DNA of 51,414 nt, taken from the NCBI GenBank assembly GCA_029060065.1, contig JAIDUT010000073.1:1-51414 (forward strand). Direction: 5' to 3'. Both the position numbers and the translations under genes were made by a program. The notes under the pieces were generated by a model. That model made no database searches, was not told the DNA's origin, and saw only the letters and a program-made list of their open reading frames with translations. Position 1 is the first letter of the stretch, and each line of letters opens with the position of its first letter. Below, in pieces: positions 1 to 24,194 of the stretch. This DNA comes from Clostridia bacterium. Its GTDB lineage: Bacteria; Bacillota; Clostridia; Christensenellales; UBA3700.

Positions 1-56
1 CTTTTTGTAGCGTGCAAGATTTCACAAAATCTTGCTAATTGATGGGGAGGTGTGAT

Positions 57-242
57 ATGGCAAAAGAAAAACCGCGCGCAGAAGTCGTAAGTTCTGACGA
101 ATCGACCGATGTTCCGAAAAAATTGACTTTGGAGGTTGAGATGTCGGATAAAGTCGAATTGGTCGTATGTGAAGTGTGCGGACACAAGAACGTAAAGAGT
201 GCAGGACTTTGCGCTATGTGTTCAAATTATTTAATTAATTAA
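57..242 (+). CDS. small zinc-ribbon protein (hypothetical)
   Basis: Track ORF 39..242. The best start is ATG 57, 7 nt after GGGAGG (44-49). The C-terminus has CxxC-N10-CxxC (CEVCGH...CAMCSN). No family recognised. Confidence 0.5.
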   Translation: MAKEKPRAEVVSSDESTDVPKKLTLEVEMSDKVELVVCEVCGHKNVKSAGLCAMCSNYLIN

Positions 243-254
243 AGGAGATAAAAA

Positions 255-1637
255 ATGTGTTTTAGAAAAAAAGAAGAATTTATACCCATCGACGCTCCTA
301 TAGCAGAGCAAGCAAGACCGTATTTAGAGCATAGGAGGCGTCTAAACGAATTAAATTTCGAGAATGCGCACGAAGTGGAAATTGCTATTTACTGTCTTAA
401 CGTAAATCCAACTTTGGTAAGAGATTTGGACGTCGCCAATGCAAGAGAATTGGCAATATTAAAAATTTGGATAGGAAAGGATTATTCAAATTATTTGTTG
501 TGCATAAAGAACAACATCGAACATATTGAGCTGTTGACATTGTATATTATCGGGAAGTTGCTAAAGACTCTCGGAGCAGGTAATGAAGGGATTTCGCTTC
601 TTGTAAGTTATGATAAAAAATTGTTGATAAATTATCAATACGAAACTAAAAGCGGGGAAACGATTTCCTACTTTGACAAAAATCTGGGAGTACCTACCTC
701 GCTTGTTGCAAAGGCAAATATTAAGCTCAAACTTGCCGATGCGCAAAAACTTGTCGAAAACATAGACGTAGCGCTGAAATACTTAGATATGGCGCTTGTG
801 TCCAACTTTATTACGGGAATTATAAACAAGACCGTGCGCGATACGATATTGAACTTTATAGATAAAAAGGGATTGTCGTTCTATGACTTGCCTCAATACT
901 ATACCGAAATAAACCAAGGTATTTTTGCAAAGTTGAAAGAGCAATTCGAGATATGCGGTATGACATTGACAGACTTCTCTTTGTCGGACATATCGGTTCC
1001 CAACAACACGGGCAAACTTTTGAGAGATCAGTTCTTTGCTATATCCGAAGCCGAACGTATTAAAAAACACGAGTACAAAATGGAGAAAGAGGCTTTGGAT
1101 TTATACGAGCGTAAGGCGTCAATACACGACAAGTATCCCGATTTTCCAATTACGCTCACCGAGGCAGAGAAGGATTTTGCTCTCAATCGCTATTTAACGC
1201 GTATGGGTAAGGATACGGCTTTGACGGCTGATATTAAAGATGAGGTATTGGAAAAACGCAAAGTAATCAACAAAGGCACCGTCACGACAGAACGCAAAAT
1301 TACCGCGCCGAAGTTTATTAAGAAATCCAACAAGACCCGTCTTATTTTCGGTGTTTCTGTAGCGGTATTATATTTAATTGCCTTAATATGCTTTGCAGGC
1401 GGAGCAAAATTAGGTTTTTCAATGTTGGCGGGCGTAACTTTGCTATCAGGTATAGTGGCTATTGTATGTTATAACAAACTCAAATACGGTGACAAGTCAG
1501 AGCAGATTGTAGATACGGGATACCGTCGTGAAAACGATATGTATATCAAACAACAAGAAGACGTAGATATTGTAGAAAACGCGAATATGAAGTCGGACGC
1601 GAGTGAAGAAGAGAATTGGGAGAAAAATAATGGTTAA
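255..1637 (+). CDS. hypothetical membrane-anchored protein, possibly SPFH/band-7 (YdjI-like)
   Basis: AAAGGAG SD lies before ATG 255. 460 aa with two C-terminal TM helices (LIFGVSVAVLYLIALICFAGG, FSMLAGVTLLSGIVAIVCY). The central segment (FEICGMTLTDFSLSDISVP...EAERIKKHEYKMEKEA) resembles SPFH-type proteins only loosely. Confidence 0.45.
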   Translation: MCFRKKEEFIPIDAPIAEQARPYLEHRRRLNELNFENAHEVEIAIYCLNVNPTLVRDLDVANARELAILKIWIGKDYSNYLLCIKNNIEHIELLTLYIIGKLLKTLGAGNEGISLLVSYDKKLLINYQYETKSGETISYFDKNLGVPTSLVAKANIKLKLADAQKLVENIDVALKYLDMALVSNFITGIINKTVRDTILNFIDKKGLSFYDLPQYYTEINQGIFAKLKEQFEICGMTLTDFSLSDISVPNNTGKLLRDQFFAISEAERIKKHEYKMEKEALDLYERKASIHDKYPDFPITLTEAEKDFALNRYLTRMGKDTALTADIKDEVLEKRKVINKGTVTTERKITAPKFIKKSNKTRLIFGVSVAVLYLIALICFAGGAKLGFSMLAGVTLLSGIVAIVCYNKLKYGDKSEQIVDTGYRRENDMYIKQQEDVDIVENANMKSDASEEENWEKNNG

Positions 1638-4185: not shown

Positions 4186-4872
4186 ATGGAATACAAAGTA
4201 TTTGTAGTAGAAGACGACGAGAGTATAAGAGGACTATACGAGATAGCTTTTCAAGACAAATTCGACTGCTTGAGTTTTGTCAGAGCCGAGGATATGTTCC
4301 AAGCGTTAAAGGCAGATACTCCCGATATAATTATTTTGGATTTGATGTTGCCGGGAATGGACGGACTTCAGGCGCTATCGCTTCTCAAGCAAGACGCGCA
4401 GACGAGAGATATACCTGTCATAATAGCAAGCGCTAAGGGCGATGAAAGCGTCAAGGTGAGAGGTTTGGACGCAGGTGCAGACGATTATATTGCAAAGCCT
4501 TTCGGCATGCTGGAACTGATTGCGAGAGTTAAAGCAAACTTGCGCAAGTCCGGCGGTAGAAAAGGCGACGAAGACGTTATTGAATGCGGTAGTATTAAGA
4601 TAAACAATGCAGAACACGCGGTTTACGTCGATTCGCAACTTGTCAATCTCACGTTAAAGGAGTATAATTTGCTGTCATTACTTGTCAAGAATGCCGATTG
4701 CGTCGTTACAAGAGAGAAGATTCTATCCGAAGTATGGGATTATGAATTCGTGGGCGAAACGCGTACGCTTGATATGCACGTTAAGTCGTTGAGGTCAAAA
4801 CTCGCTGAGTTTTCCGACAAGCAATTTATTGCGACTATTCGCGGAGTGGGATATAAGTTTATTAAAAGTTGA
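4186..4872 (+). CDS. OmpR/PhoB-family response regulator
   Basis: AAAGGAGG SD. Receiver domain (VFVVEDDESI, IIILDLMLPGMDG, AKGD) plus a winged-helix output domain (LTLKEYNLLSLL...IRGVGYKF). Confidence 0.9.
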   Translation: MEYKVFVVEDDESIRGLYEIAFQDKFDCLSFVRAEDMFQALKADTPDIIILDLMLPGMDGLQALSLLKQDAQTRDIPVIIASAKGDESVKVRGLDAGADDYIAKPFGMLELIARVKANLRKSGGRKGDEDVIECGSIKINNAEHAVYVDSQLVNLTLKEYNLLSLLVKNADCVVTREKILSEVWDYEFVGETRTLDMHVKSLRSKLAEFSDKQFIATIRGVGYKFIKS

Positions 4873-4873
4873 T

Positions 4874-4902
4874 TTGCTATTTTCTAAAAATAGTATTATA
4901 AT
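4874..4902 (+). promoter_or_regulatory. sigma-A promoter abutting the release-factor-like gene (predicted leaderless mRNA)
   Basis: TTGCTA (4874-4879), a 17-nt spacer, then TATAAT (4897-4902). The ATG at 4909 starts 7 nt after the last -10 base, and there is no SD. Confidence 0.55.
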
Positions 4903-4908
4903 AATCAT

Positions 4909-5916
4909 ATGTACGGAATTTACGACGATATTATATCCTCGGCAGAGAGGGCGCTTGATAGTTTTGAAGAAACAAAAGAACTTTTGGAATATCCCGAAGT
5001 ACAGGCGGACAAGGCATATTATTTGTCTATTTTATCAAAGTACAATAATCTGAAAATTATAAAGGACAAGCATACCGCGCTTATATCCGCGCTCGAAGAG
5101 GAAAAGGCGGTGTCGGATATGCTTTCAGACGCAAGTTCCGACGATGAGCGAGCGGTAATATACGAGGAGATTTCTTCTTTGAAAAGAAGCGCGTCGAAGA
5201 TATCGTCGTCGCTTTCGGATGCTCTTGGCTGTAAGCGCGCAGAGGAGCGAGCATATTGCAGATTCAAATTCAAAGAGAATTACTCTAATTTCGGCGTAGC
5301 TTTATTTTCTCTCATTAAAACTGATTTGTTGTCGCGCGGAGCCAAGGTTGAGGAGGAAACCGTCGTAACCTCAAAAGGCGGTTATACGCAGGAAATATCT
5401 TTCATAGCAGAGGGAGCTGACGTCATTACTCGACTTAGCCCGCTTTCGGGCGCGCACAAGGTTTATACCTCTCAGTCTAAGAGCGAAGAATTGCGCTTTG
5501 CGGTGACCCCGTCGGCAAAGATTGATAAGGTAGAGGAGAACGACTTGAAGATAGACGTTTTTCACTCTTCGGGCGCAGGCGGTCAGAACGTAAATAAGGT
5601 CGAAACGGCTATACGCATAACGCACATACCCACTGGACTTGTAGTCGTCTGTCAAGACGAGCGGTCGCAACTTAAGAATAAAAAACGCGCGCTGGCTACT
5701 ATTGAAAAGAAGTTGAAAGAGAGGAGCGAGCAAGCGGAGAAAAAACGCATGGAAGCCGATATCTGCGCGCAACATTCCCAAAAGAACACGCCGATATCTT
5801 TTGACGCGCTTAGTAATACTATGAGCGATACGCGTCTAAAAGCGTTTTCAAAAATTCCTTTTCCGCTTGACGAAGGACAATTCACTCAATATATAAACGG
5901 GCTTATAGCATTATGA
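4909..5916 (+). CDS. divergent class-I peptide chain release factor-like protein (GGQ present, codon-recognition loop absent)
   Basis: FHSSGAGGQNVNKVETAIRITHIPTGLVVVCQDERSQLKNK is a canonical RF-1/GGQ domain. The N-terminal helical domain aligns to RF1 domain 1. The PxT/SPF region is replaced by HKVYTSQSKSEELRFAVTPSA. Confidence 0.75.
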   Translation: MYGIYDDIISSAERALDSFEETKELLEYPEVQADKAYYLSILSKYNNLKIIKDKHTALISALEEEKAVSDMLSDASSDDERAVIYEEISSLKRSASKISSSLSDALGCKRAEERAYCRFKFKENYSNFGVALFSLIKTDLLSRGAKVEEETVVTSKGGYTQEISFIAEGADVITRLSPLSGAHKVYTSQSKSEELRFAVTPSAKIDKVEENDLKIDVFHSSGAGGQNVNKVETAIRITHIPTGLVVVCQDERSQLKNKKRALATIEKKLKERSEQAEKKRMEADICAQHSQKNTPISFDALSNTMSDTRLKAFSKIPFPLDEGQFTQYINGLIAL

Positions 5917-8300
5917 TACAAAGAATTACTGCAGATACAAAAAAGATAGCGTTATCTTCAAATCGAACTATCTACAAGACAGAGGGCTTTATTACGCTTA
6001 CGCGCAGAATAATGTCCATTGATGCTTTTATTTCCCGTGTTGCAGAAGGTATTTTTAGCTCGAATATAACTCTTCCCGACGGCTGTTGCATAGCGCAGAC
6101 GGAGGACGGACTCTATACGCTTTTCTTACTTTGCAAAGGTATAGATAAAAGGTTAAAGGGCGGAGATATCGTATTTTATAAATTCTTAAGCGCTAATTCT
6201 ACCGAGGGCGGAATCGACAGACGGCTGAGCGATTATATTTCCTCGGGCAGTAAAATTACGCTTGTATTACGCGAAACTAACGATACGGCGCAAGAAGAGG
6301 ATTTAACTAGATTGTATCTTGTGTCAGGCTCCGACGGCATAGTCAACTTTCCTTATCTTAACGAAACGCAACGAAAAATCGTCGAAACCGAGGACGCCAA
6401 CATGCTCGTGCAGGGTATTGCCGGAAGCGGTAAGACCAACGTGTGCGTTGAAAAAATCGTATATTGCGCTTGTCGTAACTATCGTGGCGCTGTGTTATAC
6501 ACAACGTTTTCTCGCGGACTTTTGAGCGAAACGCGTAACCGTGTAGAACTGTTTTCAAAAAATATCGACGGCTTTATTTCCGCATATGAGAGCGGGCGCG
6601 TCGTGTTCCTCGACGCAGACCATAAAAAAGCCGTGGAAAACAAACTGGGTATTCTCTTTTCCGTAGACGAGGACGGCGAAATCATATCCGCATTAAAGCG
6701 TATTGCTAAATTTCTAAAACAAAAGGTAGAGTATCGACTAATTGAAGATCTATACGCAGATATGTTTGAAGCAAAGCGCGTAGCAGGCGAAAGCGTATTT
6801 TTGAAAGAGTATTTAGGCTCGGGAAAAAATTATCGACTTTCCGGCGCGTTGGAAAAGATAAAAAATATTGCGCCTGAGATAATTTATAAAGAGATATACG
6901 GAATGATTTTCGGTAAGTACGAACTTGACGCGCCGAGCGATATGATGAGCAGACAGGAGTACGTTGACGCTAGAAGCGACAGCTTTACACCGCGCGAATG
7001 CGACACTATCTATTCCGTTGCTCTCGATTACTCCGAGTTTTTGAAGAAGCGCGGTTATACGGACAATAATCTTATGAGCCGTGAGATTTTAAGTAAAGTT
7101 TCGACGCCGACGTATTCGGTAGGCGTAATCGATGAAGCGCAGGACTTTACGCAGGTAAATCTATGCCTTATGAAAAAGTTGTGTCGAAAACTATTTTGCG
7201 TAGGCGACGCTTTGCAGATGATAAATCCGTCGTATTTCAATTTCGGATATTTGAAGCGTTTAATGTACGGCGACGTTACGGGCGTCAACGAGTTGAGGCA
7301 CAATTATCGCAGTACTCAAAGAATTGAAAGAATAGCCGAAAAACTCGGAGAAATGAATATGCAGAGGTTCGGCACACACAGCTTCGTATTGAAGGGAGAA
7401 AGCGTACCTTCTCCACTGCCTTCGGGAGCGGTTGTAGTAAAGGATAGAAATTTCGTTTACTCGCTGGGCGATAAGAAGTTCGAAAACGTAACCGTAGTTG
7501 TAGCCTCGCAGAAAAAGAAAGAAGAGCTCAAAAAGTTTTTGGGTAAGATAGAGATATTAACCGTAGCCGAAGCAAAGGGCTTGGAGCGCAATACCGTAAT
7601 ACTTGTAGACGTATTAAGCGACAACGCCGACAAGTGGCGATATCTTCACAATATGTCGCTCAATAGAAAGAAAGCCGACGAAAATTCCGTGTTCAGGTAT
7701 TACTTCAATCTATTCTACGTAGGTATTTCCCGCGCTAAGCAGTATTTATTCGTCGCCGAGTCAAATTATCCGGAATCTTTCAACAACTTATTTAACGAAT
7801 GTTTTGAGCGAAAGAATAAGGAAGGCGCTCTTGCGTATCTAAGAGAGATTGCAGGCAGATTAGAGATAGACGACGATGAATTCATCGAGCGTATAGAAAA
7901 GTTCTGTTCGCTAGAGCAGTACGAAAATGCAAGGAACACTGCGGACAGGCTATCGACAGAAGAGGCGCGTAAGAAGCAACTTATTTATATATCTATTCAC
8001 GAAAATTACTTGCGTTACGGAAAGATAAGGGACGCTGGAATAGAGTATTGGCGACAGGGTATGGACGCAGAGGCTCGCGAAATGTTCACCCGTTCGGGAG
8101 ATACGGAGTTGTTTCCGTTAATGGACGCGTGTCTGCAGGGCGGTGGAGTACTCAATCCCGAAATCGTACGATTCTATCCGTTAATAGAGGATAACGAAGT
8201 AGCAAAGAAAATTATAATCGACACGCTAAATAAAGACAGCAATGAAATAGCGGTAAAATTAAAAACCGCAAACAATAATTTGAAGAGGAAAAGACAATGA
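5913..8300 (+). CDS. UvrD/Rep/HelD-like superfamily-1 helicase with unknown N-terminal domain and helical C-terminal extension
   Basis: ATGA overlap with the upstream stop. SF1 motifs are LNETQRKIV, GIAGSGKT (Walker A), VIDEAQDF (Walker B), VGDALQMI, NYRSTQRI, AEAKGLERNTVILV and YVGISRAKQYLFV. Confidence 0.8.
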   Translation: MIQRITADTKKIALSSNRTIYKTEGFITLTRRIMSIDAFISRVAEGIFSSNITLPDGCCIAQTEDGLYTLFLLCKGIDKRLKGGDIVFYKFLSANSTEGGIDRRLSDYISSGSKITLVLRETNDTAQEEDLTRLYLVSGSDGIVNFPYLNETQRKIVETEDANMLVQGIAGSGKTNVCVEKIVYCACRNYRGAVLYTTFSRGLLSETRNRVELFSKNIDGFISAYESGRVVFLDADHKKAVENKLGILFSVDEDGEIISALKRIAKFLKQKVEYRLIEDLYADMFEAKRVAGESVFLKEYLGSGKNYRLSGALEKIKNIAPEIIYKEIYGMIFGKYELDAPSDMMSRQEYVDARSDSFTPRECDTIYSVALDYSEFLKKRGYTDNNLMSREILSKVSTPTYSVGVIDEAQDFTQVNLCLMKKLCRKLFCVGDALQMINPSYFNFGYLKRLMYGDVTGVNELRHNYRSTQRIERIAEKLGEMNMQRFGTHSFVLKGESVPSPLPSGAVVVKDRNFVYSLGDKKFENVTVVVASQKKKEELKKFLGKIEILTVAEAKGLERNTVILVDVLSDNADKWRYLHNMSLNRKKADENSVFRYYFNLFYVGISRAKQYLFVAESNYPESFNNLFNECFERKNKEGALAYLREIAGRLEIDDDEFIERIEKFCSLEQYENARNTADRLSTEEARKKQLIYISIHENYLRYGKIRDAGIEYWRQGMDAEAREMFTRSGDTELFPLMDACLQGGGVLNPEIVRFYPLIEDNEVAKKIIIDTLNKDSNEIAVKLKTANNNLKRKRQ

Positions 8301-9031
8301 ACGAAAATTCCATTAAAGAACTTATTGACAGTTTTATAGAGTATCGCAACCTTATTGCGCCTTTGCAGGACAGTTTGCATTTGGTAAGCAAGACCTACGA
8401 AGAGATAAGGAACGACCTTGACGACCTTAACAAAAGTTTTTCCGGCAATGCCGTAAATCAGCTAGAAAAAGTTCACGCTACAATCAACGCGCAAGCGAAG
8501 AGCGGGCAGGAACTTAGCAGGAGAATTGAAGAGTATTCTCAATCAGGCGAGAAATACGCGCAGGCAGTCAAGGATATGTCTTCGAGATTTTCCGAAGTTG
8601 TCAACAAGATTGATACGCTAAGCGAAATCGAAAAAACTGCGCAAAGTCAACTAGAGCGAATAGATACGCTTATATCGGAAAAGCGTTCTTCGTACGACCT
8701 CAGGGGATTGCAGAAATCGCTGGACAGTTACAATACCAACGTCGAGAAGATAAGCGATTTTATCAATAAGGATATAGCGTCCGTATTAAAGCAAAACGCA
8801 GAAAAGATAGAGGCTATTCGCAAAGAAAACGAGGAGCTTTCGGCGGTTGTCGCCGAGCAAGGCAAGAATATAGCCATTCTCGTCACCGAGTTTTCAAATA
8901 CTTCCGCGCTACTGAAGAAGTTGGTAGAGGGTAGTACCGTCAACGAGGAGTACTTGTTCGATGCATTCGATAAATGGGCGTCTGACAGAAAGGTGAAAAT
9001 CAAGAAAAAAGACAGTGTTGCTAAAGATTAA
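8297..9031 (+). CDS. coiled-coil protein (hypothetical)
   Basis: ATGA overlap with the helicase stop, and a GAGGAAAAG SD. 244 aa, heptad-rich and Glu/Lys/Ser-rich, with no TM helix and no recognisable motif. Confidence 0.5.
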   Translation: MNENSIKELIDSFIEYRNLIAPLQDSLHLVSKTYEEIRNDLDDLNKSFSGNAVNQLEKVHATINAQAKSGQELSRRIEEYSQSGEKYAQAVKDMSSRFSEVVNKIDTLSEIEKTAQSQLERIDTLISEKRSSYDLRGLQKSLDSYNTNVEKISDFINKDIASVLKQNAEKIEAIRKENEELSAVVAEQGKNIAILVTEFSNTSALLKKLVEGSTVNEEYLFDAFDKWASDRKVKIKKKDSVAKD

Positions 9032-9056
9032 AATAGGATAAATCAATTTAGAGAAT

Positions 9057-11153
9057 ATGGCGCAATCGATAGAAGATAGCTTGCTTCAAGCTATAAAAAA
9101 AGACGATATAAAGGCGTTCGACGCTTTAATGGAAAAAGCTCAGTGCGGGGCATACCGACTGGGTAGATTTCCCGTGCTTTCACTTTTGTATCTTTATAAA
9201 TCGCGCAAGATACTTTCTGCATATGAAGAGATGTTCCTGAAGACGACAAACTCCGTTACGCTAAGCGAACCTGCGGAAATTTCCAAGAAATTTTCCGCTA
9301 AGGCAGGTAAGTGTCTGAGATTGTATTTCAATGAAGTTGTATCTCCCCTTGAAATGCTGTTGATATTGGACAAAACAAAGCATTTGAAGAAAGTATATCC
9401 AATGACCAACTTATCTTCGGCGGTCAAGGAACGACTTAAATCTATTTATTACATCAGGTATTCGTTGAGCGTGAAATTCGAGGGCAACGAAATTATTATA
9501 GAAAGACGACCGTTAACTTATCGCGAAAAGAAAAGGCTGGCTACTATATGTTTAAGCGCGGTTTTAGTAATCTTAATTGTCATCGGCGCGTCAGTTACCA
9601 CGTCTATTATTTCGCCTAAACGTCTTGATAAATATATAGACTTAAGCTCTAACGAGGAGTTTATCCTTGAACATGACGTATATGTGCCGAGGAACTATTC
9701 TATAGAAGAAATCAACTGCAGTATTGTCGGCAATGGGCATAAGCTGATTTTCCGTAAAGGAGCGACTATTAAGACATTCAATGGGAAGATGTCGGATTTG
9801 ACAATAGAATGTTCGGGCAATGCGATAATTAATACGATTTCTCAATACGCTACTCTTGAAAATGTTACGGTAAACGTAAATGCCAATGTTACTACGGCAA
9901 AGAGCAACGCATTTGTCGCAATGACCAACTACGGTTCTATAGACGGAATTAAGGTTAACGTGAGCGGAAGGCTTACTACGGCAAAAGAAGTTGACGGAGA
10001 AATTACAATAGGCGGAATAGTTTACGGTAACGCGGGAACTGTTAAAAACTGCGTAGTCAACTATTCTCGATTCTCGCTTGACGGAAGGGCTAATACGAGC
10101 GCCAACTCCTCTTTCGGTGGAATGGTGGGCATCAATGTCGGAAATGTGCAGGGTTGCTCCGTCACTGGTAAAATTACCGCAGATACCTTTGACGTTGTCG
10201 GCGTATGCTTGGTCAATAACTACGTGATTTCAGATACCGTCAATAAAGCCGATATATCGCAGACTTCAGCCAATGCAGGTTGGAGCCCAATCGCTTGCGG
10301 TATTGTGTCAAGAAACTATTATTTAGTTAAAAACTGCGAAAACTTAGGAAGTATTTCAGCGACTTCAAATTGCGGACAGATAGGGGCAGACGATGTAGCG
10401 CCCTCCGCTACGTCGGCAGGCATAGCTTATCTAAACGGAGTATATAAAAACGGCATTAACGCTTCAATTGAGAAATGTAAGAATAGCGGTGAGATTTCCG
10501 CTATCAGCAACGGCGAAGTGTATATAGGCGGAATTACCGCAACTTCATACGGATATATTTACAATTCTATTAACAGCGGTAATATCACCGTAAAGGCTCA
10601 TACCGTATACGCAGGCGGAATTTTGGGCTTCAGCCAAGTGGCAATCGATTCCGGCTACATTTATTTTTCTACCGTGGATAGTTGCATAAGTCAAGGCAAA
10701 ATCAACGTGAAGTCAGACGATACAGCTTACGTTGGGGGTATAGTCGGACAAATAGCCGAAATGGAAATCGAGCAATATAAGGTTGACGAAGACGGTAATT
10801 TTATAAAAGACGAGAACAATCAATATGTAACGGAAACCGTATTCCGTGGCGGTCGTGTGAAAAACTGCTATTTCACGGGAGAGTATACTTCCGAGGTCAA
10901 GTATTTTGGCAATATCGTCGGGGCATGCGGAGCAAATATATATCGAGAGAACTCATATACTTCGGGTACATCCGAGCATAGAAATTTTGAAGATAATTAT
11001 TATTTGGCTAATTCATTTAGCGCATTTGGAGCGACGGTATCGGGCGACGACATTGCTAACGCAGTCGAAGATAAGGGCGCGACTTCTGCGACGCTAGAAG
11101 AGATACTAAATTCAAAGGCGTACAAATCCATAATTGACAATTTCGATAACTAG
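9057..11153 (+). CDS. single-pass membrane protein with extracellular GLUG-motif repeat domain
   Basis: About 165 aa of cytoplasmic N-terminus, a TM helix (LATICLSAVLVILIVIGASV), then repeated xNCxxxGxI...GGIVG units (VKNCVVN, VQGCSVTGKI, VKNCENLGSI, IEKCKNSGEI..YIGGITA, YAGGILGF, YVGGIVGQ, VKNCYFTGEY). Confidence 0.6.
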   Translation: MAQSIEDSLLQAIKKDDIKAFDALMEKAQCGAYRLGRFPVLSLLYLYKSRKILSAYEEMFLKTTNSVTLSEPAEISKKFSAKAGKCLRLYFNEVVSPLEMLLILDKTKHLKKVYPMTNLSSAVKERLKSIYYIRYSLSVKFEGNEIIIERRPLTYREKKRLATICLSAVLVILIVIGASVTTSIISPKRLDKYIDLSSNEEFILEHDVYVPRNYSIEEINCSIVGNGHKLIFRKGATIKTFNGKMSDLTIECSGNAIINTISQYATLENVTVNVNANVTTAKSNAFVAMTNYGSIDGIKVNVSGRLTTAKEVDGEITIGGIVYGNAGTVKNCVVNYSRFSLDGRANTSANSSFGGMVGINVGNVQGCSVTGKITADTFDVVGVCLVNNYVISDTVNKADISQTSANAGWSPIACGIVSRNYYLVKNCENLGSISATSNCGQIGADDVAPSATSAGIAYLNGVYKNGINASIEKCKNSGEISAISNGEVYIGGITATSYGYIYNSINSGNITVKAHTVYAGGILGFSQVAIDSGYIYFSTVDSCISQGKINVKSDDTAYVGGIVGQIAEMEIEQYKVDEDGNFIKDENNQYVTETVFRGGRVKNCYFTGEYTSEVKYFGNIVGACGANIYRENSYTSGTSEHRNFEDNYYLANSFSAFGATVSGDDIANAVEDKGATSATLEEILNSKAYKSIIDNFDN

Positions 11154-11162
11154 TAATATAAT
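11134..11162 (+). promoter_or_regulatory. consensus sigma-A promoter for the histidine kinase, embedded in the 3' end of the GLUG gene
   Basis: TTGACA (11134-11139), a 17-nt spacer, then TATAAT (11157-11162). The ATG at 11172 lies 9 nt after the -10 box, with no SD. Confidence 0.55.
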
Positions 11163-11171
11163 ATAACTGAT

Positions 11172-12911
11172 ATGAAAAACAAGATTTTGAGAAGAGTTAT
11201 ATTGATAATGACGGTAGCGGTGTTCGTTACCGTTGCTTTGACTTTCTTTCTTTTCAATATCTATACTATCAATTCTATAAAAGATTTTCTTCAACCTGAG
11301 ACGGAGTTTATTGCGGACAAGCTCAAAGACGTAGACAGTTTTGACGACATAAGTTCTTTACTTGGGGACGAGAATGAAAAAGAAGACGTATTTAAGATAG
11401 TAGTCTTTGACTTTAATAAAAACGCAGTTTACGTAAACACGCCCGTTGATTTAGATTTGGGACGCAGAGTTGTCAGACATTTAGATAAAGCCGTAAGCGA
11501 CGGAGATAATTTTTTCTTAGGCAGTACGTATCAATCGGGTATGGCTATCAACTATGCCGTTAAAGTAAATAATGAGAACATAGAGGGCGGTTATCTCATT
11601 CTTATGTGTTCCATAGACGTTATCTACAATACGGGACCGTATTTTCTTATCGTCGGCATTGCCGTGCTAATTTGGGCGGGCGTAATACTTTTGTCATACT
11701 TTGCGTTGACGCTCAATATGAAGTTCGCGACGATACCTTTTGAAAAACTCGAAGGCATACTTGTAGATATTAATAACGGCGAGTATACGCCAATGCAAGT
11801 GCCGGAAAAACTCAACTTTCCGGAGTTTAAGGCGGTTTTGACTAAGGTCGACGACGTAGCCGGCGAAATTGCCAAAAACCTTGTCAATTTGCAATACGAG
11901 CAGAAGAAGTCGTCAATACTTCTTCACTCTGTCAATCAAGGCATTATCGTCGTATCTCCCAGCGGAAGAATAGTTCTTAACAACAACGTGGCATTGCAGA
12001 TATTCGGCAAAGAAAACGACGCAGTCGGCGTTGACCTTGGTTATCTTGTAGACAATGAAGATTTACTTGCTTCGCTTAAGCAATCGCTTGAAGATAAGAA
12101 ATGTTACGTAGGCGAAGTTGGCATAGGCGAAGAGATATACAGAGTTGAGACAAGTTTTGATACCGTAGAGGACGAAGTAATTGCCGGCGACGTAATGGTG
12201 ATAATATTAACCAACGTAACTATCGAGGTCAACAACGCAAAGATTAGAAGCGAGTTTTTTGCCAACGCTTCTCACGAACTCAAGACACCGCTGACGGCAA
12301 TCAGCGGATATTCCGAGCTTATGACAATGGAGGGCGTATCGCAAAAACAGCTTGACGTGTGCATAAGGGAAATCAATTCCAACGCAGGTAGAATGAAGAC
12401 TCTCATAGACGACATGCTTAAACTCTCCAAATTGGATGCAGATATGGACAACGAAGAGCAATCGACTACGGATATGGCAAAACTCTGCGAAGAAGTCGTA
12501 ATGGACCTTAAGGGTGTCGCCGACAGCAAGGGAGTACGGCTTGAAGTGTCAGGAAAAGCCAAATTATTATGCAGACCTAAGATGATTGCAACGCTTGTGA
12601 CCAATTTGGTCAACAATGCTATCAAGTACAACAAAGACGGCGGATACGTAAAGATATGTTTAAGCGAAAGTAAAGACGGAGTTACGCTTAAAGTCAAAGA
12701 TAACGGTATAGGTATCGCAAAAGAGCATCAAAGCAGACTTTTCGAGAGGTTCTATAAAGTCGATGCGTCGCGCACTTACATCAACGAAAGTTCTACCGGA
12801 CTTGGACTTGCTATAGTAAAAAGAATTGCCGTTATTCACGGCGCGAAGATTTCGCTCAAGAGTGAATTGGGAGAGGGAAGCGAGTTTGCGGTTGTATTTC
12901 CAAGCCGTTAA
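11172..12911 (+). CDS. sensor histidine kinase (PhoR/VicK-like)
   Basis: Two TM helices flank a periplasmic-type loop. H-box FFANASHELKTPLTAISGYSE, N-box NLVNNAIKYN, G-boxes DNGIGI and GLGLAIVKRI. Confidence 0.9.
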   Translation: MKNKILRRVILIMTVAVFVTVALTFFLFNIYTINSIKDFLQPETEFIADKLKDVDSFDDISSLLGDENEKEDVFKIVVFDFNKNAVYVNTPVDLDLGRRVVRHLDKAVSDGDNFFLGSTYQSGMAINYAVKVNNENIEGGYLILMCSIDVIYNTGPYFLIVGIAVLIWAGVILLSYFALTLNMKFATIPFEKLEGILVDINNGEYTPMQVPEKLNFPEFKAVLTKVDDVAGEIAKNLVNLQYEQKKSSILLHSVNQGIIVVSPSGRIVLNNNVALQIFGKENDAVGVDLGYLVDNEDLLASLKQSLEDKKCYVGEVGIGEEIYRVETSFDTVEDEVIAGDVMVIILTNVTIEVNNAKIRSEFFANASHELKTPLTAISGYSELMTMEGVSQKQLDVCIREINSNAGRMKTLIDDMLKLSKLDADMDNEEQSTTDMAKLCEEVVMDLKGVADSKGVRLEVSGKAKLLCRPKMIATLVTNLVNNAIKYNKDGGYVKICLSESKDGVTLKVKDNGIGIAKEHQSRLFERFYKVDASRTYINESSTGLGLAIVKRIAVIHGAKISLKSELGEGSEFAVVFPSR

Positions 12912-16014: not shown

Positions 16015-16341
16015 ATGATTGAAGAGATGATAGACAGTATTATCGAAGCTGAGGACAAAGCGCAAGAAATTGTCAAAGCATCGGTCAACGAGTCGAATAA
16101 TATCGTGAGCGAGGCAAAAGTCAAAGCCGACGCTTTGATTGTAAACGCCAAGGATGAACAGTACGCTAAAGAACAATCGGCTATAGAGGCGGGAGAAAAG
16201 AAAGGCGCGGAGTTGAGGCAGGCTCAACTTGAAGAAGCTCAGAAGCAGGCTGACGCTATGATTGCTACGCTGGAAAAGAATAAGAAGAAAGTCACTGTAA
16301 GTATTATCAAAGAGTTAAAAGGTAAGTATGGCATTAAGTAA
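16015..16341 (+). CDS. ntpF: V-type ATPase peripheral-stalk coiled-coil subunit (position of E. hirae NtpF)
   Basis: About 108 aa, all-helical and Ala/Glu/Lys-rich. It is the first gene of an operon whose order matches ntpFIKECGABD. ATG 16015 lies after ACGGAGA. Confidence 0.6.
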   Translation: MIEEMIDSIIEAEDKAQEIVKASVNESNNIVSEAKVKADALIVNAKDEQYAKEQSAIEAGEKKGAELRQAQLEEAQKQADAMIATLEKNKKKVTVSIIKELKGKYGIK

Positions 16342-18328
16342 TATGCAGAAGTTGCTTTTGATAGGCAACGTCGCAGAGCGTAATACTTTGATTAAAAAAC
16401 TGCACAAGTTGGGTTGCGCAGAAGTCGTTGCTACGCAAAAAATCGACAAGATGCAGGCGGTGGATATTCAACAGGACATTGACGAAAACAAGGTTAAACT
16501 TGCCAAGTTGGAATTTTGCTTAGCTACCGTCAAAGAATATAAGGCTACTGCGAAAAAACTTGCTAAAGAGCACAAGATAGACTATACCCACGTCAAAGGC
16601 AGAGGTATGTTTGCGGTAAAACCTATAATTACTTATGAGAGTTTTGAAGAGTTGAAAAATACCCAAGCAGATATTTTTTCGCAGATAGAAGAACTCAAGG
16701 CTTGCAAAGACGAGATAATTTCCTTAAAAACAGAAAAGCAGAAGCAAAATACTACGCTTGCGTCAATGGCGCCATATAAGAATATGGGCATTGCTTTTTC
16801 GCGTTTTAAGGATACCAAAACCGTCAACGTTTTGCTTGGCGAAGTTAAGAATGAAAAACTTTCTCTATTGGAAAGCATAAGGCAAAATGGCGGAGAGTAT
16901 GAAGTGTTTAGCGGAGAGCCCGTCAGCGGTGTTGCGATAGTAATACCAAAGGAAAAGAGAGAAGATATTCAAGAAACTTTGACCCAAGTTGACTTTGCAG
17001 TATGTTCGGTCAATGAAGATAAGACGGCAAGCCATATTATCGAAGAGTGTTATTCCAATATTGATAATATAGAAAAACAAAGCGACAGACTTGTCGAAAA
17101 AATTATGACCTTTGAGAGTATAATTGAAGACGTCAAGAAATTGTATGATTATATTACTCTTGAAGTGGCAAAGGAGCAGAGCAGAAACAATACGCAAGTT
17201 ACGCAGGCTACCTATTATCTGGAAGCATGGCTACCGCAGAGCGAAGCGCAAAGAGTGGAAAAAGAGTTGACGGACTCTCCGCTCTCGCTTGCATTTTTGA
17301 TAAGAGATCCGCTTGAAGGCGAAGACGTGCCTACGTTTGCGGTAAATAACGGAGTGGTTGCGCCGTACGAGAGCGTAACGAATATGTATTCCGTACCTTT
17401 CTATAAGGAGATAGACCCAAATCCGGGAGTAGCGTTTTTCTTCTTCCTGATGTTCGGAATGATGTTATCCGACGCGGGCTACGGATTGTTGCTTACGTTG
17501 GGCGCAGGTTTAATTCTTGCCATAAGAAGACCGCCAAAGGGACAGCTTAATCTTGTAAAGATTATATTTATGGGCGGTATTTCGACAATTATCTGGGGAT
17601 TTTTGTTCGGCTCATACTTTGGATTGAGTGCAAATAAAATGGGTATTTGGTATTGGTTTAACCCGATAGAAGACCCTATGCCTCTTTTGGTAGTTTGTCT
17701 TGCTATAGGCTTGATACAGATGTTCGTAGGTATGGCAATCAATATGGTTGCGTTGATAAGAAAGGGCGAAAAGTTGTGGGGTATATCCTCGGCATTCAGT
17801 TGGTACTTCTTAGCGCTTGGCATAGGCGGTATTTACTTGGCAAGCAAGGTTGGAAGTTGGATGAAGTACGTCGGTATCGTACTCCTTGTAGCGGGAATTG
17901 TACTTCTTATGCTCTCGGGGACATTCGGCAAAAAAGGCGCAAAGAAAATCAGCGGAGCATTTTCGTCGTTGTACGGTATTATCAATTTCTTCTCCGACTT
18001 GATGAGTTATACTCGTATCTTCGGTCTTGGCTTGGCGACTGGCGTTATAGCAATGGTATTTAATGAGATTGCAAAGATAATGTACGGTATGTTGCCAAAA
18101 TTCTTGGGAGTGATAGCGGTAATAGCTATATGTATCATAGGTCATACGTTCAACGTAGCCATCAACGCGCTCGGCGCATACGTGCACAATTCAAGATTGC
18201 AATTCGTCGAATACTTCGGCAAGTTCTATACCGGCGGTGGGGAGCTGTTTGCGCCACTTGGCAGTCAAATGAAGTACTACGCGATAGGAACGCCGGAAGA
18301 GAAAAAGGCTAAGAAAGCAAAGGCGTAG
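16328..18328 (+). CDS. ntpI: V-type ATPase subunit I (membrane a-subunit)
   Basis: 666 aa with a soluble N-terminal half and a multi-TM C-terminal half containing the conserved region MSYTRIFGLGLATGVIA and HTFNVAINALGAYVHNSRLQFVEYFGKFY. Confidence 0.9.
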   Translation: MALSNMQKLLLIGNVAERNTLIKKLHKLGCAEVVATQKIDKMQAVDIQQDIDENKVKLAKLEFCLATVKEYKATAKKLAKEHKIDYTHVKGRGMFAVKPIITYESFEELKNTQADIFSQIEELKACKDEIISLKTEKQKQNTTLASMAPYKNMGIAFSRFKDTKTVNVLLGEVKNEKLSLLESIRQNGGEYEVFSGEPVSGVAIVIPKEKREDIQETLTQVDFAVCSVNEDKTASHIIEECYSNIDNIEKQSDRLVEKIMTFESIIEDVKKLYDYITLEVAKEQSRNNTQVTQATYYLEAWLPQSEAQRVEKELTDSPLSLAFLIRDPLEGEDVPTFAVNNGVVAPYESVTNMYSVPFYKEIDPNPGVAFFFFLMFGMMLSDAGYGLLLTLGAGLILAIRRPPKGQLNLVKIIFMGGISTIIWGFLFGSYFGLSANKMGIWYWFNPIEDPMPLLVVCLAIGLIQMFVGMAINMVALIRKGEKLWGISSAFSWYFLALGIGGIYLASKVGSWMKYVGIVLLVAGIVLLMLSGTFGKKGAKKISGAFSSLYGIINFFSDLMSYTRIFGLGLATGVIAMVFNEIAKIMYGMLPKFLGVIAVIAICIIGHTFNVAINALGAYVHNSRLQFVEYFGKFYTGGGELFAPLGSQMKYYAIGTPEEKKAKKAKA

Positions 18329-18428
18329 TAAGTGATGTTGAGGAGGTATAGGCTACGCAAGTAGGCGTTAATCTCAAAAACATCTTAGATTTTAGATAAG
18401 ATAGAATAAATAAAAGATAAAAAAATAA

Positions 18429-18935
<507 letters not shown>

Positions 18936-18950
18936 TAGTAAAGGTAAATT

Positions 18951-19532
18951 ATGAACAACAAAGAAGCAATTATCCAAAAGATAATAGACGACGCTAACGC
19001 AGTGGCTGGCGCTAAAATAGCGGAGGCTAACGATACGGCAAGTCAAGTTTTAGCGAGAGCGCAAAGACAGGTTGACAGATTCAATGAGAGTAATTCAGGT
19101 AGGACTGACAAACTGTATCAAGAAGCGTTGGAGCGGAGCCAAGTCGTCGCAAATCTAGACATTAAAAAGCTCTTGCAAGGCAAGAAAAAGGAAATCATCG
19201 ACAAGGCGTTCGATGAGGCTTTGGACGCTATCAAGGCGGATAAAAAGACTTATCTCGCGCTTGTAGAGGGGATGATAATGTCTTGCTGTGAGGACGGGGA
19301 CGAAGTCGTTGTCGCAATGGAAGACGATAAAGTTATAACAAAGAAGTTGATTGCCGACATTGCAAAAAAGAGTAAGAAGTCGTTAAAGAAGAGCGAAGAG
19401 TTTGGAGATTTCAAAGGCGGAGTAATTTTGTCGGGTAAGAATTACGACAAAAACCTTACTTTGGAATTGGAACTTTCTTTGATTAAAGAAAAAATCGAGA
19501 GCAATATCGATTCGATTTTGTTTGGGGAGTAA
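18951..19532 (+). CDS. ntpE: V-type ATPase subunit E
   Basis: 193 aa. N-terminal long helix (IIQKIIDDANAVAGAKIAEAND) plus a C-terminal globular domain. Operon position also supports the call. Confidence 0.8.
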   Translation: MNNKEAIIQKIIDDANAVAGAKIAEANDTASQVLARAQRQVDRFNESNSGRTDKLYQEALERSQVVANLDIKKLLQGKKKEIIDKAFDEALDAIKADKKTYLALVEGMIMSCCEDGDEVVVAMEDDKVITKKLIADIAKKSKKSLKKSEEFGDFKGGVILSGKNYDKNLTLELELSLIKEKIESNIDSILFGE

Positions 19533-19538
19533 AGACTG

Positions 19539-20510
19539 ATGGCAAAAAATAGCTTGGTCTATTCAAATGCAAGAGTTAAGGCTTTGGAAAATACTTTCTT
19601 GACCAACGAAAAGATTGTGCGTATGGCGTACAGCGATTCTTTGGAGGAGGGTATCAAAGTGCTTATGGAAAGTTCTTACGGCGGAGGTATGATCGCCGAC
19701 GCCAAGGACTATGACGAAATCTTGCAGGCGGAAGATAGAAAGGTGAGCGAATTTGTATTCGACGCTATGCCGGACGGACAAGGCATGGAAACCTTTGCCG
19801 TTAAGTCTGACTATCACAACCTTAAAGCTATAGTCAAGGGCAAATATATGCGACTTGACAATATTGATTTTATGTTAATGCCAAAGGGCAATCTCGACCC
19901 CAAGGAAATCAAAGATATGATATACACCGACGACTATTCGACGCTGAGCGAGAGTATGCAAAAAGCTCTTTTGACAATCGACAGCGCAAGAGCCGACGGT
20001 AATACGTCGCCGAGATTTATAGACTTGACGCTTGATAAGGCTTGCTATAGCGATATTATGGCAATGCTTAAGAAAGCTAAAAATAAGTTCATGACTACTT
20101 ATTGGCAGACAAATATCGATATGATGAATATTTCCGCTTTCGTTAGAGCAAGTAAGGCGGGCGACATAGAGGTATTCAAGGAGAGCTTTATTGACGGAGG
20201 TAAACTTGACGTATACTTCTTCAACACAGAGTTGCAAGCAGTAATTGATAAGTTGGCGTTTTCGCCTTATCCGCAAATCGCAGAAGCTCTTAAATCGGGA
20301 GATTTCGTGTCCTTTGAGAGGATTTGGGACAATACCCTTATCAATATATTCAAAGAAGGTCGTAACGATATCTTTTCGGTAGCCCCCATAGCAGGGTTCT
20401 ACGTAGCTAAGAAAATCGAGATAAAGATAGTGAGAATGATATGTATCCTTCTCAAAAACGACGTAGATAAAGACGTCATAAAAGACAGATTGAGGGAATT
20501 GTATGCGTGA
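19539..20510 (+). CDS. ntpC: V-type ATPase subunit C (d-type)
   Basis: 323 aa and all-helical. N-terminus YSNARVKALENTFL. Operon position between E and G. Confidence 0.8.
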   Translation: MAKNSLVYSNARVKALENTFLTNEKIVRMAYSDSLEEGIKVLMESSYGGGMIADAKDYDEILQAEDRKVSEFVFDAMPDGQGMETFAVKSDYHNLKAIVKGKYMRLDNIDFMLMPKGNLDPKEIKDMIYTDDYSTLSESMQKALLTIDSARADGNTSPRFIDLTLDKACYSDIMAMLKKAKNKFMTTYWQTNIDMMNISAFVRASKAGDIEVFKESFIDGGKLDVYFFNTELQAVIDKLAFSPYPQIAEALKSGDFVSFERIWDNTLINIFKEGRNDIFSVAPIAGFYVAKKIEIKIVRMICILLKNDVDKDVIKDRLRELYA

Positions 20511-20829
20511 AGGCAAGATAGCGGTAGTTGGAGATAAAGATTTGATTTTGGCGTTTAAGGCTATCAGTATGGAAGTCTTTTGCGCCGATACCAAAGAAGA
20601 GGGCGAAGCTATTATAAAGAAACTCGCCAAAACTCATTCTGTTATATTTATTACGGAAAATCTAGCTGAGCAAATGGATTCTTTGCTCGCAAAATATAAG
20701 ACCAAGGCTTATCCGGCAATAATACCTATACCAAACGGTGGCAAGTCTAACGGCTACGGTATGCAAGGAATTAAGGCAGACGTGGAGAGAGCTATCGGTA
20801 CAGACATATTGTTTAATAAGGAAGATTGA
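20503..20829 (+). CDS. ntpG: V-type ATPase subunit F (position of E. hirae NtpG)
   Basis: 108 aa. [22 protein letters not shown]-like N-terminus, then VIFITENLA. Confidence 0.8.
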
Positions 20830-20831
20830 TT

Positions 20832-22595: not shown

Positions 22596-22604
22596 GGAGA
22601 GAAT

Positions 22605-24005
22605 ATGTTAAAGGAATATAAGTCAATTAGAGAAATCGTAGGACCGCTTATGCTTGTTGACGGCGTTGACGGCGTAGCTTACAACGAACTTGTCGAAATC
22701 AAAGGCAAGGACGGAAGCATAAGAAGAGGTAAGGTGCTTGAAGTCAACAGAGATAAGGCGCTTATTCAGCTTTTTGAGGGTGCGCAAGGCTTGCAAATGT
22801 CCACTTCAAAGGCAAGATTTTTAGGCAGAAGTTTGGAACTTGCCGTATCTGAAGATATGCTGGGCAGAGTTTTTGACGGTATGGGCAATCCCAAGGACGG
22901 CGGAGCGCCGATAATTCCCGACATGAAACTCGATATCAACGGCCAACCTATAAATCCTGCCGCAAGAGATTATCCCGACGAGTTTATTCAGACGGGTATA
23001 TCAGCTATCGACGGACTTAACACCTTGGTAAGAGGACAAAAACTTCCGGTATTCTCGGCGTCAGGCTTACCGCACGCAGAACTTGCGGCGCAAATCGCAC
23101 GTCAAGCTAAAGTGCTTAACAATGACGAAAAATTCGCAGTCGTATTCGCCGCGCTTGGAATTACTTACGAAGAAGCTGAATTCTTTATGCAAGACTTCCG
23201 TAAGACGGGCGCAATAGAAAGAGCCGTAATGTTTATCAACCTCGCCAACGACCCGGCAATCGAGAGAATATCAACTCCTAAGATGGCTTTGACAGCCGCG
23301 GAGTATCTAGCATTTGAAAAAGGTATGCATGTGCTTGTAATAATGACTGATATTACTAATTATTGCGAAGCGCTAAGAGAAATCTCTGCCGCAAGAAAAG
23401 AAGTGCCGGGCAGAAGAGGTTATCCCGGTTATCTCTATACCGACCTTGCTACGATGTATGAGAGAGCGGGCAGAATAAGGGGCAAAGCCGGTAGTATTAC
23501 TCAAATACCGATACTTACTATGCCCGAAGATGATAAAACGCACCCAATCCCCGATTTGACGGGTTATATAACCGAAGGTCAAATAATCTTTGGTAGAGAA
23601 CTCTACAAAAAAGGTTATACGCCACCTATCGACGTTCTCCCGTCGCTTAGCCGTCTAAAACAAAAGGGAATTGGCGAAGGTAAGACGAGAGAAGACCATT
23701 CAGGTAATATGAACCAGCTCTTTGCCGCGTACGCTAAAGGTAAGGAGTGCAAAGAACTGTCGGCTATACTCGGCGATGCTGCGCTCACTCCGCTTGACAG
23801 ACAGTACGCATCTTTTGCAGAAGAGTTTGAGAAGAGATATATTAACCAAGGCTTCTATACCAATAGAACCATTGACGAAACCTTGCAGATAGGTTGGGAA
23901 CTCTTGACGCTCTTGCCAAGGTCCGAGATGAAGCGTATTAAGGATAAGTACCTTGAGATGTACTATGACCCAATCAAGGCAAAGCTAGAGGAAGAAAAGA
24001 AGTAA
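22605..24005 (+). CDS. ntpB: V-type ATPase subunit B
   Basis: [41 protein letters not shown] and [15 protein letters not shown]. Confidence 0.95.
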
Positions 24006-24016
24006 TATTTGCAAAC

Positions 24017-24029
24017 TGAACAATGTTCA
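24017..24029. promoter_or_regulatory. TGAACAATGTTCA palindrome (copy of the TetR-promoter operator core)
   Basis: Identical 13-mer to 2655-2667. It lies 12 nt after the ntpB stop, within AAACTGAACAATGTTCAA. Confidence 0.45.
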
Positions 24030-24162: not shown

Positions 24163-24194
24163 AATAGTAAATCGGCATAATATAAGGCAGGCAA

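Follow-up and report, generated by a model that had tools for sequence, protein, structure and literature searches.

A conserved four-gene operon joining a release factor 1 paralogue to an SF1 helicase in uncultured gut Christensenellales-type Clostridia

The subject of this paper is a cassette at positions 4874-11153 of contig JAIDUT010000073.1 (assembly GCA_029060065.1) from a Clostridia bacterium of the UBA3700 group, order Christensenellales; the whole stretch which was analysed, 51,414 nt, is called the window. The cassette consists of a promoter and four co-directional genes, coding for a paralogue of release factor 1 (RF1), a superfamily 1 (SF1) helicase, a coiled-coil protein and a membrane protein (Table 1). 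It is an autonomous operon which a large lineage of uncultured gut Clostridia of the Christensenellales type has inherited as one unit. Judged from its sequence, the release factor (RF)-like protein is an RF1 paralogue with a predicted intact catalytic centre and a deficiency in decoding. A first-pass annotation had proposed a new self-contained operon joining a GGQ release factor paralogue, an SF1 helicase, a coiled-coil protein and a GLUG membrane protein. The co-conservation described below upholds this proposal, and the coordinates and lengths which it gave for the four open reading frames (ORFs) were all reproduced.

Class-I release factor paralogues are rare, and each of those that are understood (ArfB, PrfH, mtRF1 and mtRF-R) has revealed a distinct pathway of ribosome rescue. 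A whole RF1 body with its catalytic centre but without the reading of stop codons, tied strictly to an ATP-driven SF1 motor and to a membrane anchor bearing a large extracellular domain, is a combination present in no known rescue, quality-control or defence system.

Conservation of the four genes as a unit

The genome scan, in which an alignment of the helicase was run against a single genome for each GTDB species, detected a relative in 298 genomes, and the best 80 of these were analysed. The loci were mapped with the four proteins of the window, and loci broken by contig ends are not informative. The order RF-like gene, helicase, coiled-coil protein and membrane protein is kept in 75 loci, in all of them co-directionally. 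In a 76th locus (L068, 8832-9821, minus strand) the RF-like gene is inverted yet adjacent to the helicase. The cassette is co-conserved in every locus with both flanks readable, 75 co-directional and this one divergent but adjacent. The first-pass annotation had named the separation of the genes in related genomes as the outcome which would speak against its proposal. The opposite was found, since all 76 informative loci keep the genes together, down to a helicase identity of 42%.

The junctions are tight. Both of the ATGA stop/start overlaps claimed for the window (5913-5916 and 8297-8300) can be read in the sequence, and so can the 25-nt gap ahead of the membrane-protein gene. The junction between the RF-like gene and the helicase is overlapping in 51 of the 75 loci, 38 times as ATGA, and that between the helicase and the coiled-coil gene in 60 of 75; the coiled-coil and membrane-protein genes are separated, or overlap, by 30 nt or less in 61 of 70 loci. 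The identity of the four proteins to those of the window declines gradually and in parallel across the loci (Table 1). All four genes are under purifying selection, with dN/dS values of 0.04-0.16 for the unsaturated pairs. The parallel decay together with the strong purifying selection looks like vertical descent.

Nearly all of the best 80 genomes are metagenome-assembled genomes (MAGs) named Christensenella, Christensenellaceae, Christensenellales or Clostridia. They come from mouse, human, rabbit, goat, sheep and rumen samples, and none of the 80 records carries a cultured-isolate label. Relatives of the RF-like protein at 63-99% identity form at least 120 clusters, each of about 335 aa and each from uncultured "Clostridia bacterium" MAGs, where the source annotation reads "hypothetical" or "PCRF domain-containing". 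For the helicase 847 relatives were found, the top 120 at 70-94% identity. No conserved fifth gene was seen among the loci; the most frequent flanking cluster occurs in 12 of them.

The first-pass annotation had suggested a neighbourhood search with the RF-like protein as query. Six look-ups seeded by RF-like proteins all returned the same four genes, of about 335, 790, 238 and 650-800 aa, among unrelated flanking genes of the housekeeping type (FTHFS and purE; PFOR and a sigma factor; EF-G; ThiF and MgtC). A scan of metagenomes with 34 divergent representatives of the RF-like proteins without the PxT motif serves as a negative control only, because the search patterns sit in the GGQ region shared with RF1 and so recovered canonical RF1 only, the divergent RF-like clusters not being covered. 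Among the 80 canonical RF1 loci obtained in this way PxT is found in 79, and none has such a helicase nearby. The one RF gene of this control set without a simple PxT or SPF pattern (L096, 2037-2969) likewise has no helicase nearby. The scope on the release factor side is narrow, since the genome scan was seeded with the helicase: whether the RF-like gene occurs without the helicase is addressed by the six look-ups and by 15 of about 111 PxT-less clusters, these 15 having at least 50% identity to cassette-linked proteins. For about 96 of the roughly 111 clusters (50% identity) no close cassette-linked relative is in hand.

Some loci deviate in detail. In two distant genomes (L054, 3417-4433; L072, 8553-9512) the RF-like gene is 341-485 nt apart from the helicase, still adjacent to it, and in L068 and L072 RNase PH adjoins the RF-like gene. 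A few cassette contigs lie in bins of unrelated taxa, namely L081 in a record titled Ruminococcus bicirculans, L059 and L065 in Bacteroidaceae and L080 in Lachnospiraceae. This probably reflects errors of binning or labelling rather than horizontal transfer.

The release factor paralogue

The first protein of the cassette matches Pfam RF-1 at 1.3e-29, with PCRF below its cut-off. It aligns with residues 5-292 of E. coli RF1, a span which covers domains 1 to 3 and enters domain 4; the remainder of domain 4 was compared with the RF1 C-terminus by eye only. The RF1 architecture of four domains is kept, domain 4 being aligned at its start only. The GGQ motif is at aa 224-226 (nt 5578-5586). Its region is near-invariant across the family (G.GGQN.NKVETA.R.TH.PTG..V.CQDERSQ..NK), and a centre of release-factor type, G[AK]GGQ[NH][IV]N, is present in 74 of the 77 members.

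The decoding elements have a different fate. The PxT loop is deleted: the loop with PxT and the strand which reads the third base (RVPATESQGRIHTSA in E. coli) are replaced by a shorter, unconserved stretch at aa 183-195 (nt 5455-5493). The tip of alpha5 (GTGGDEA) is not conserved and is replaced at aa 123-131 (nt 5275-5301). A PxT or SPF motif is found in 1 of the 77 family members, against 79 of the 80 canonical RF1 controls. In the far group of the family domain 3, which holds the GGQ, keeps 47% identity, and domains 1, 2 and 4 are at 14-20%. In a library clustered at 50% about 111 of the best 150 RF matches are without PxT, which suggests that the RF-like family is large and fast-evolving.

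None of the curated release factor models is passed. The best score is that of prfA (TIGR00019), 129.1 bits against a cut-off of 423.25, followed by prfH (TIGR03072) with 80.6 against 166.65 and ArfB (NF006718) with 42.6 against 100, the last one for the GGQ core only. The C-terminal tail has a net charge of about -1. Four longer RF matches looked like fusions. Three of these (P0266, P0277 and P0312) are canonical RF1 with assembly duplications or chimeras, and the fourth (P0258) is a family member with a mis-called start.

In the window 34 genes end with TAA (16), TAG (10) or TGA (8). Because UAG is commonly used as a stop codon, a separate RF1 is expected to be needed elsewhere in the genome. 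This bears on the trivial explanation that the RF-like gene is just the divergent housekeeping RF1 of the lineage, with the helicase as an incidental neighbour. The full RF1 domain architecture and RF1 as the best match favour it, but a housekeeping RF1 would hardly have lost the PxT loop and the conserved alpha5 tip, scored 129 bits against the 423 of the prfA cut-off, evolved so fast in its non-catalytic domains, which canonical RF1 does not do, or adjoined a helicase in 76 of 76 loci when canonical RF1 does so in 0 of 80. With UAG so common a stop codon in the window, we regard this explanation as very unlikely indeed.

The helicase

The second protein contains a UvrD core at aa 149-617, with PF00580 and PF13361 above their cut-offs. 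All of the SF1A motifs which had been listed for it were located: GSGKT (aa 171-175), DEAQD (407-411), GDALQ (431-435), NYRST (464-468), AKGLE (554-558) and YVGISRA (602-608). Walker A, Walker B (DExQD) and motifs III-VI being in place, the protein is a member of the SF1 UvrD/Rep/PcrA-type superfamily. The motor motifs are invariant in 41 sequences of 41-94% identity and present in 79-80 of 80. Since only about 90 residues separate motifs IV and V, the helicase is predicted to be without a UvrD-type 2B domain.

Orthology to a known helicase is not reached. The curated models of PcrA, UvrD and Rep give 56, 45 and 43 bits against cut-offs of 911-1144, and the best solved relative, PcrA (4e-08), matches the N-terminal part of the core only. 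HelD (NF041464) gives 31 bits against 419 (E 6e-08) and HelR (NF041254) 16.5 against 750 (E 2e-03). The label "HelD-like" in the first-pass annotation is at variance with these scores and with the N-terminal domain, which is predicted to be alpha/beta and not the coiled coil of the secondary channel. The best profiles in the defence library are GajB models (PADLOC, 1.8e-21), with partial matches to parts of the core only.

Two extensions of about 150 aa and about 170 aa had been described, and the Pfam core does leave about 148 aa at the N-terminus and about 175 aa at the C-terminus. The AlphaFold2 (AF2) model shows a mixed alpha/beta domain over the first 140 residues, where the predicted local distance difference test (pLDDT) is 80-90, and is poor for the remainder; the model was made from a 15-sequence alignment, has a pLDDT of 53 and is unreliable outside the N-terminal domain. 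Foldseek matches of the model (TIP60, Upf1, Senataxin, UvrD, nsp13) had TM-scores of 0.1 or less and were discarded on account of the poor model. The last 175 residues are helical; they give faint TPR hints and close with a conserved basic tail. Profile searches with both terminal domains against PDB sequences and Pfam gave nothing credible (best E 0.057). In about 75 homologues the last 15 residues carry a net charge of about +4.6 in the helicase and about +4.3 in the coiled-coil protein. By analogy, these conserved tails, rich in Lys and Arg, recall the tails of SmpB, ArfA and ArfB which probe the mRNA channel.

The coiled-coil and membrane proteins

The third protein is helical throughout, and its invariant residues cluster at both ends. 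The mean column identity of a 41-sequence alignment is 56%. It ends in a basic tail, DKWAsDRKVKIKKK (nt 8969-9010), conserved as W-A-x-x-R-K-V-K-x-K-K. Matches to SMC, JetC, LmuB, ZorA, MCP, apolipoprotein and tape-measure proteins were set aside as compositional.

The fourth protein was modelled with a mean pLDDT of 87.9. Its predicted beta-helix matches the IgA1-protease beta-helix (7uvl_P) in Foldseek with a probability of 1.00, and the family profile matches 7uvl at 4.6e-06. The protein of the window has no Pfam match; the name GLUG membrane protein, which it had been given, is not backed by a significant Glug (PF07581) match in this copy, but Glug is significant in 9 of 41 homologues and the predicted beta-helix match agrees with it. 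For the N-terminal domain Foldseek points weakly to DARPin/ankyrin (ANK) folds (probability 0.6-0.75, TM-score about 0.4 on the target length), and there is no Pfam Ank match in this domain or in any of the 41 homologues. One hydrophobic segment is found in 68 of 70 homologues, and the median position of its start is aa 162. Evolution is fastest in the extracellular domain, with lengths ranging from 448 to 1082 aa. From the model, the ANK-like domain, the transmembrane (TM) helix and the beta-helix are predicted to form a membrane anchor with a large extracellular domain.

Table 1. Features of the cassette, with positions in the window and identity of the proteins to those of the window
Feature	Position (nt)	Strand	Residues (aa)	Basis or remark	Identity across loci
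Promoter TTGCTA-17-TATAAT	4874-4902	+		-35 TTGCTA 4874-4879, -10 TATAAT 4897-4902; sequence and motif scan	
RF1 paralogue	4909-5916	+	335	Pfam RF-1, alignment to E. coli RF1	89 to about 25%
SF1 (UvrD/PcrA-type) ATPase-translocase	5913-8300	+	795	Pfam UvrD-helicase and UvrD_C	94 to 42%
Helicase, N-terminal alpha/beta domain	5913-6350		1-146		
Helicase, motor core	6357-7766		149-618		
Helicase, C-terminal helical domain	7770-8297		620-795		
Helicase, basic tail KRKRQ	8283-8297				
Helical bundle/coiled-coil protein	8297-9031	+	244	Compositional coiled-coil matches only	96 to 33%
Single-pass type-II membrane protein	9057-11153	+	698	AF2 model and Foldseek	80 to about 25%
Membrane protein, cytoplasmic helical-repeat (ankyrin-like) domain	9057-9470		1-138		
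Membrane protein, TM helix	9519-9611		about 155-185		
Membrane protein, extracellular GLUG-type beta-helix	9654-11096		200-680		

Promoter and translation signals

The promoter ascribed to the cassette has its boxes in place, although a match of this kind is by itself not significant in AT-rich DNA (24 against 18.2 in shuffled sequences). Its position is more telling. The ATG of the RF-like gene sits 6 nt past the end of the -10 box without a Shine-Dalgarno sequence, and because an in-frame TAG at 4891-4893 excludes a start upstream of 4909 the first gene is predicted to be translated from a leaderless mRNA. A -10 hexamer ending 5-7 nt ahead of this ATG is found in 53 of 75 loci, 46 of them with a spacing of exactly 6 nt and 49 with an extended TG, compared with 52 of 699 flanking ORFs; the other genes of the cassette show the same geometry in 0-3 of about 75 loci each. 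This conserved geometry is the reason for concluding from sequence that the operon has a promoter of its own and a leaderless first gene. In other loci, L041 and L042 among them, the RF-like gene is instead preceded by a leader containing a Shine-Dalgarno sequence. The scan for terminator-like sites on the plus strand found none inside the cassette.

The gene overlaps had been taken to indicate a fixed stoichiometry. This is contradicted by the ribosome-binding sites: within the cassette only the coiled-coil gene has a consistent Shine-Dalgarno sequence (70 of 75 loci), and for this reason equal amounts of the subunits seem unlikely.

Genomic context

The window around the cassette is ordinary chromosome, with a V-type ATPase operon, MetRS, TatD, ProRS, Sua5 and a TetR-family regulator, and the GC content is unremarkable. 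Over the loci examined the flanks are of the housekeeping type (V-ATPase, MetRS, ProRS, Sua5, FTHFS, PFOR, EF-G), and no defence or mobile genes were seen in them. PLSDB plasmids, INPHARED phages and IMG/VR hold no full-length relatives of the helicase. In PADLOC the RF-like and membrane proteins match nothing and the coiled-coil protein has weak compositional matches only. Phyletic distribution and context thus tend to speak against a mobile defence system of the usual kind, and the distribution fits a housekeeping or stress function specific to the lineage better than it fits mobile defence.

In the window the whole 6.3-kb cassette splits an OmpR-type response regulator (4186-4872) from a presumptive histidine kinase (11172-12911). 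Apart from the window, just its two closest relatives (L006 and L047) have this pair on either side of the cassette, so the cassette seems to have moved as a block into a two-component pair in the sub-lineage of the window. A link to the two-component system was rejected on the same ground.

Comparison with known systems

PrfH-RtcB is a system in which a release factor paralogue rescues ribosomes that cannot terminate normally (PMC1586002; PMC9304027; PMC12829566). The likeness to PrfH-RtcB2 consists in a class-I RF paralogue with an intact GGQ and a non-canonical decoding region, in an operon with a nucleic-acid enzyme, which in that system is an RNA ligase. However, PrfH has about 200 aa and is without domain 1, whereas the RF-like protein has 335 aa and a domain 1 which aligns to that of RF1; the partner of PrfH is RtcB, and here the partners are an SF1 helicase, a coiled-coil protein and a membrane protein. 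No RtcB was found in the window or in any cassette locus. PrfH-RtcB is sporadic and has spread horizontally (PMC6514570), unlike the cassette, which looks lineage-specific and vertically inherited.

ArfB/YaeJ (ICT1) and mtRF-R (C12orf65)-MTRES1 hydrolyse peptidyl-tRNA in a GGQ-dependent manner independently of stop codons, which is what we propose for the cassette as well. They are GGQ domains of about 140-166 aa, however, and the RF-like protein has a full RF1 body. Basic C-terminal tails serve as sensors in ArfB. That tail is ArfB's own, whereas in the cassette basic tails are found on the helicase and the coiled-coil protein and not on the RF-like protein. We know of no helicase or membrane component for ArfB or mtRF-R. 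Canonical RF1 (prfA) remains the best overall homologue with a nearly identical GGQ context; it differs by the PxT loop, the alpha5 tip and the third-base-reading strand, none of which the RF-like protein conserves, and by its neighbourhood, since the helicase adjoins the RF-like gene in 76 of 76 loci and canonical RF1 in 0 of 80.

HelD and HelR are motors which clear a stalled macromolecular machine. Like the cassette helicase they are UvrD-like SF1 ATPases in which lineage-specific accessory domains replace the classical 2B domain. The N-terminal coiled-coil arm of HelD enters the secondary channel of RNA polymerase, whereas the corresponding domain here is predicted to be alpha/beta, and HelD is not linked to a release factor. 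GajB of Gabija, the best-scoring helicase family in the defence library, shares the compact UvrD-like core, but GajA, an OLD-family ATPase/TOPRIM nuclease, is absent from every cassette locus and the context is not a defence island.

Two further comparisons are analogies only. In the eukaryotic surveillance complex UPF1-eRF1/eRF3 the function of an SF1 helicase is coupled to that of a peptide-release factor in dealing with aberrant translation complexes, but the fold of eRF1 is unrelated to that of bacterial release factors, UPF1 is SF1B and the cassette helicase SF1A, and there is no homology. Zorya combines a membrane-embedded sensor and a long coiled coil with a cytoplasmic helicase effector; the cassette has no MotA/MotB-like proteins and no MotA/ExbB domain, its membrane protein has one TM helix, and the sole link is a compositional coiled-coil match of the soluble protein to ZorA3 (2.7e-05). 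The cassette does not show the defining features of canonical RF1, PrfH-RtcB, ArfB, HelD/HelR, Gabija or Zorya. A survey of release factor families from 2019 contains no helicase-linked bacterial release factor (PMC6514570), and in the literature searched no description of an RF-helicase-coiled-coil-membrane module was found. The architecture of the system is without a described counterpart, the conceptually nearest systems being the rescue modules built on RF paralogues and, by analogy only, UPF1-eRF of eukaryotes.

A model for the function of the cassette

The model which we prefer, with a probability of roughly 0.35, is that the four proteins form a membrane-tethered, helicase-coupled complex for stop-codon-independent release of peptides, in ribosome rescue or in the abortion of translation. 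The type-II membrane protein would anchor the complex through its cytoplasmic ankyrin-like domain and expose the fast-evolving GLUG beta-helix to the outside, with the abundant coiled-coil protein as adaptor or scaffold. The SF1 motor would spend ATP on engaging a nucleic acid, for which the mRNA of a translation complex that is stalled or unwanted is the most plausible candidate, and would supply target selection or remodelling. The RF1 paralogue, in which the architecture for binding the ribosome is retained, would enter the A site and hydrolyse the peptidyl-tRNA without a stop codon; it would still act there, as catalysis by GGQ needs the peptidyl-transferase centre and only the GGQ domain is strongly conserved. 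An empty mRNA channel might be probed, or RNA or membrane bound, by the basic tails of the helicase and the coiled-coil protein. The outcome would be a helicase-coupled, codon-independent release of nascent chains, used for rescue and quality control or as a regulated abort of translation. A more particular version is a new class of bacterial translation-surveillance machine with a logic like that of UPF1-eRF: the helicase would select or remodel problem complexes and deliver the stop-codon-blind RF1 paralogue for hydrolysis of the nascent chain, a coiled-coil adaptor and an ANK-TM-beta-helix anchor would hold the machine at the membrane, and the surface domain may gate its activity according to what happens outside the cell. 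This version is possible but somewhat doubtful.

Several points weigh against the preferred model. It should be noted that homology to RF1 is the one pointer to the ribosome as target, and that UvrD-type SF1A helicases normally act on DNA and not on mRNA. The model also presumes a canonical prfA in the same genomes. Neither this model, in which a rescue factor would need it, nor any other accounts for the extracellular beta-helix of 480 aa. The helicase model is of low confidence and both accessory domains are without detectable relatives.

Among the alternatives is an envelope-sensing anti-phage or conflict system resembling Zorya. The beta-helix would sense phage adsorption or a breach of the envelope, the coiled coil would relay the signal, the helicase would attack or track the invading nucleic acid, and the codon-blind RF paralogue would abort translation as an abortive infection or a local shut-off. 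A membrane protein with a coiled coil and a helicase does recall Zorya; the GajB models are the best profile matches of the helicase (partial, 1.8e-21), the extracellular domain is the fastest-evolving part with its 448 to 1082 aa, and an unleashed codon-independent release factor would be toxic. Yet PADLOC is blank for the RF-like and membrane proteins and compositional for the coiled coil, MotA/MotB-like parts are missing, the flanks are housekeeping genes without defence or mobile genes, the phage, plasmid and viral collections do not contain the cassette, and the gradual parallel decay of identity under purifying selection looks vertical. We consider such a system unlikely.

The motor could also be directed at RNA polymerase, as in the first of two functional readings offered by the first-pass annotation; this one and the second, an abortive-infection defence, are both speculative. 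In a module for conflicts between transcription and translation the SF1 ATPase would remove or backtrack a stalled polymerase and the RF paralogue would free the trailing ribosome, possibly at transertion complexes, to which membrane anchoring could be suited. It is established that UvrD-family ATPases (HelD, HelR, UvrD, PcrA) act on RNA polymerase, and there are weak profile matches to HelD and HelR (6e-08 and 2e-03). These fall far short of the cut-offs (31 bits against 419, 16.5 against 750), the N-terminal domain is predicted to be alpha/beta at a pLDDT of 80-90 instead of the secondary-channel coiled coil of HelD, and no gene related to RNA polymerase is linked at the cassette loci, which makes the module improbable. 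An even smaller chance is given to a membrane-associated DNA transaction (repair, uptake or segregation), with the RF-like protein in a non-ribosomal, structural or regulatory role. The core of the helicase is of the DNA-helicase type with PcrA/UvrD as best solved relatives, and SMC/JetC/LmuB-type matches of the coiled-coil protein, weak as they are, could be read in the same direction, but they are compositional. No nuclease, recombinase or DNA-uptake gene is linked at the loci, and conservation of the RF-like protein is highest in its GGQ region, as is expected only when catalysis at the ribosomal peptidyl-transferase centre is retained.

If the peptide-release model is true, the cassette would stand for a new bacterial mode of ending translation in which no stop codon is needed, for the first partnership of a helicase and a release factor in bacteria, and possibly for a control of translation by what happens at the cell surface. 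The question is directly testable, as the proteins are small enough for heterologous reconstitution. Confined to abundant uncultured gut bacteria of the Christensenellales type, the cassette is in addition a lineage marker for a poorly known part of the microbiome.

Other features of the window

A scan of the window found no RNA genes, and at a threshold of 1e-05 Pfam gives nothing for three sizeable ORFs, 255-1637 (460 aa), 32613-33614 (333 aa) and 38945-40183 (412 aa). A perfect consensus promoter, TTGACA-17-TATAAT, at 11134-11162 overlaps the end of the membrane-protein gene and lies 9 nt ahead of the ATG of the histidine kinase at 11172; from this arrangement the kinase may have its own, nearly leaderless transcript. 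The V/A-type ATPase operon at 16328-24830 looks complete, with subunits I, K/c, E, C, A, B and D.

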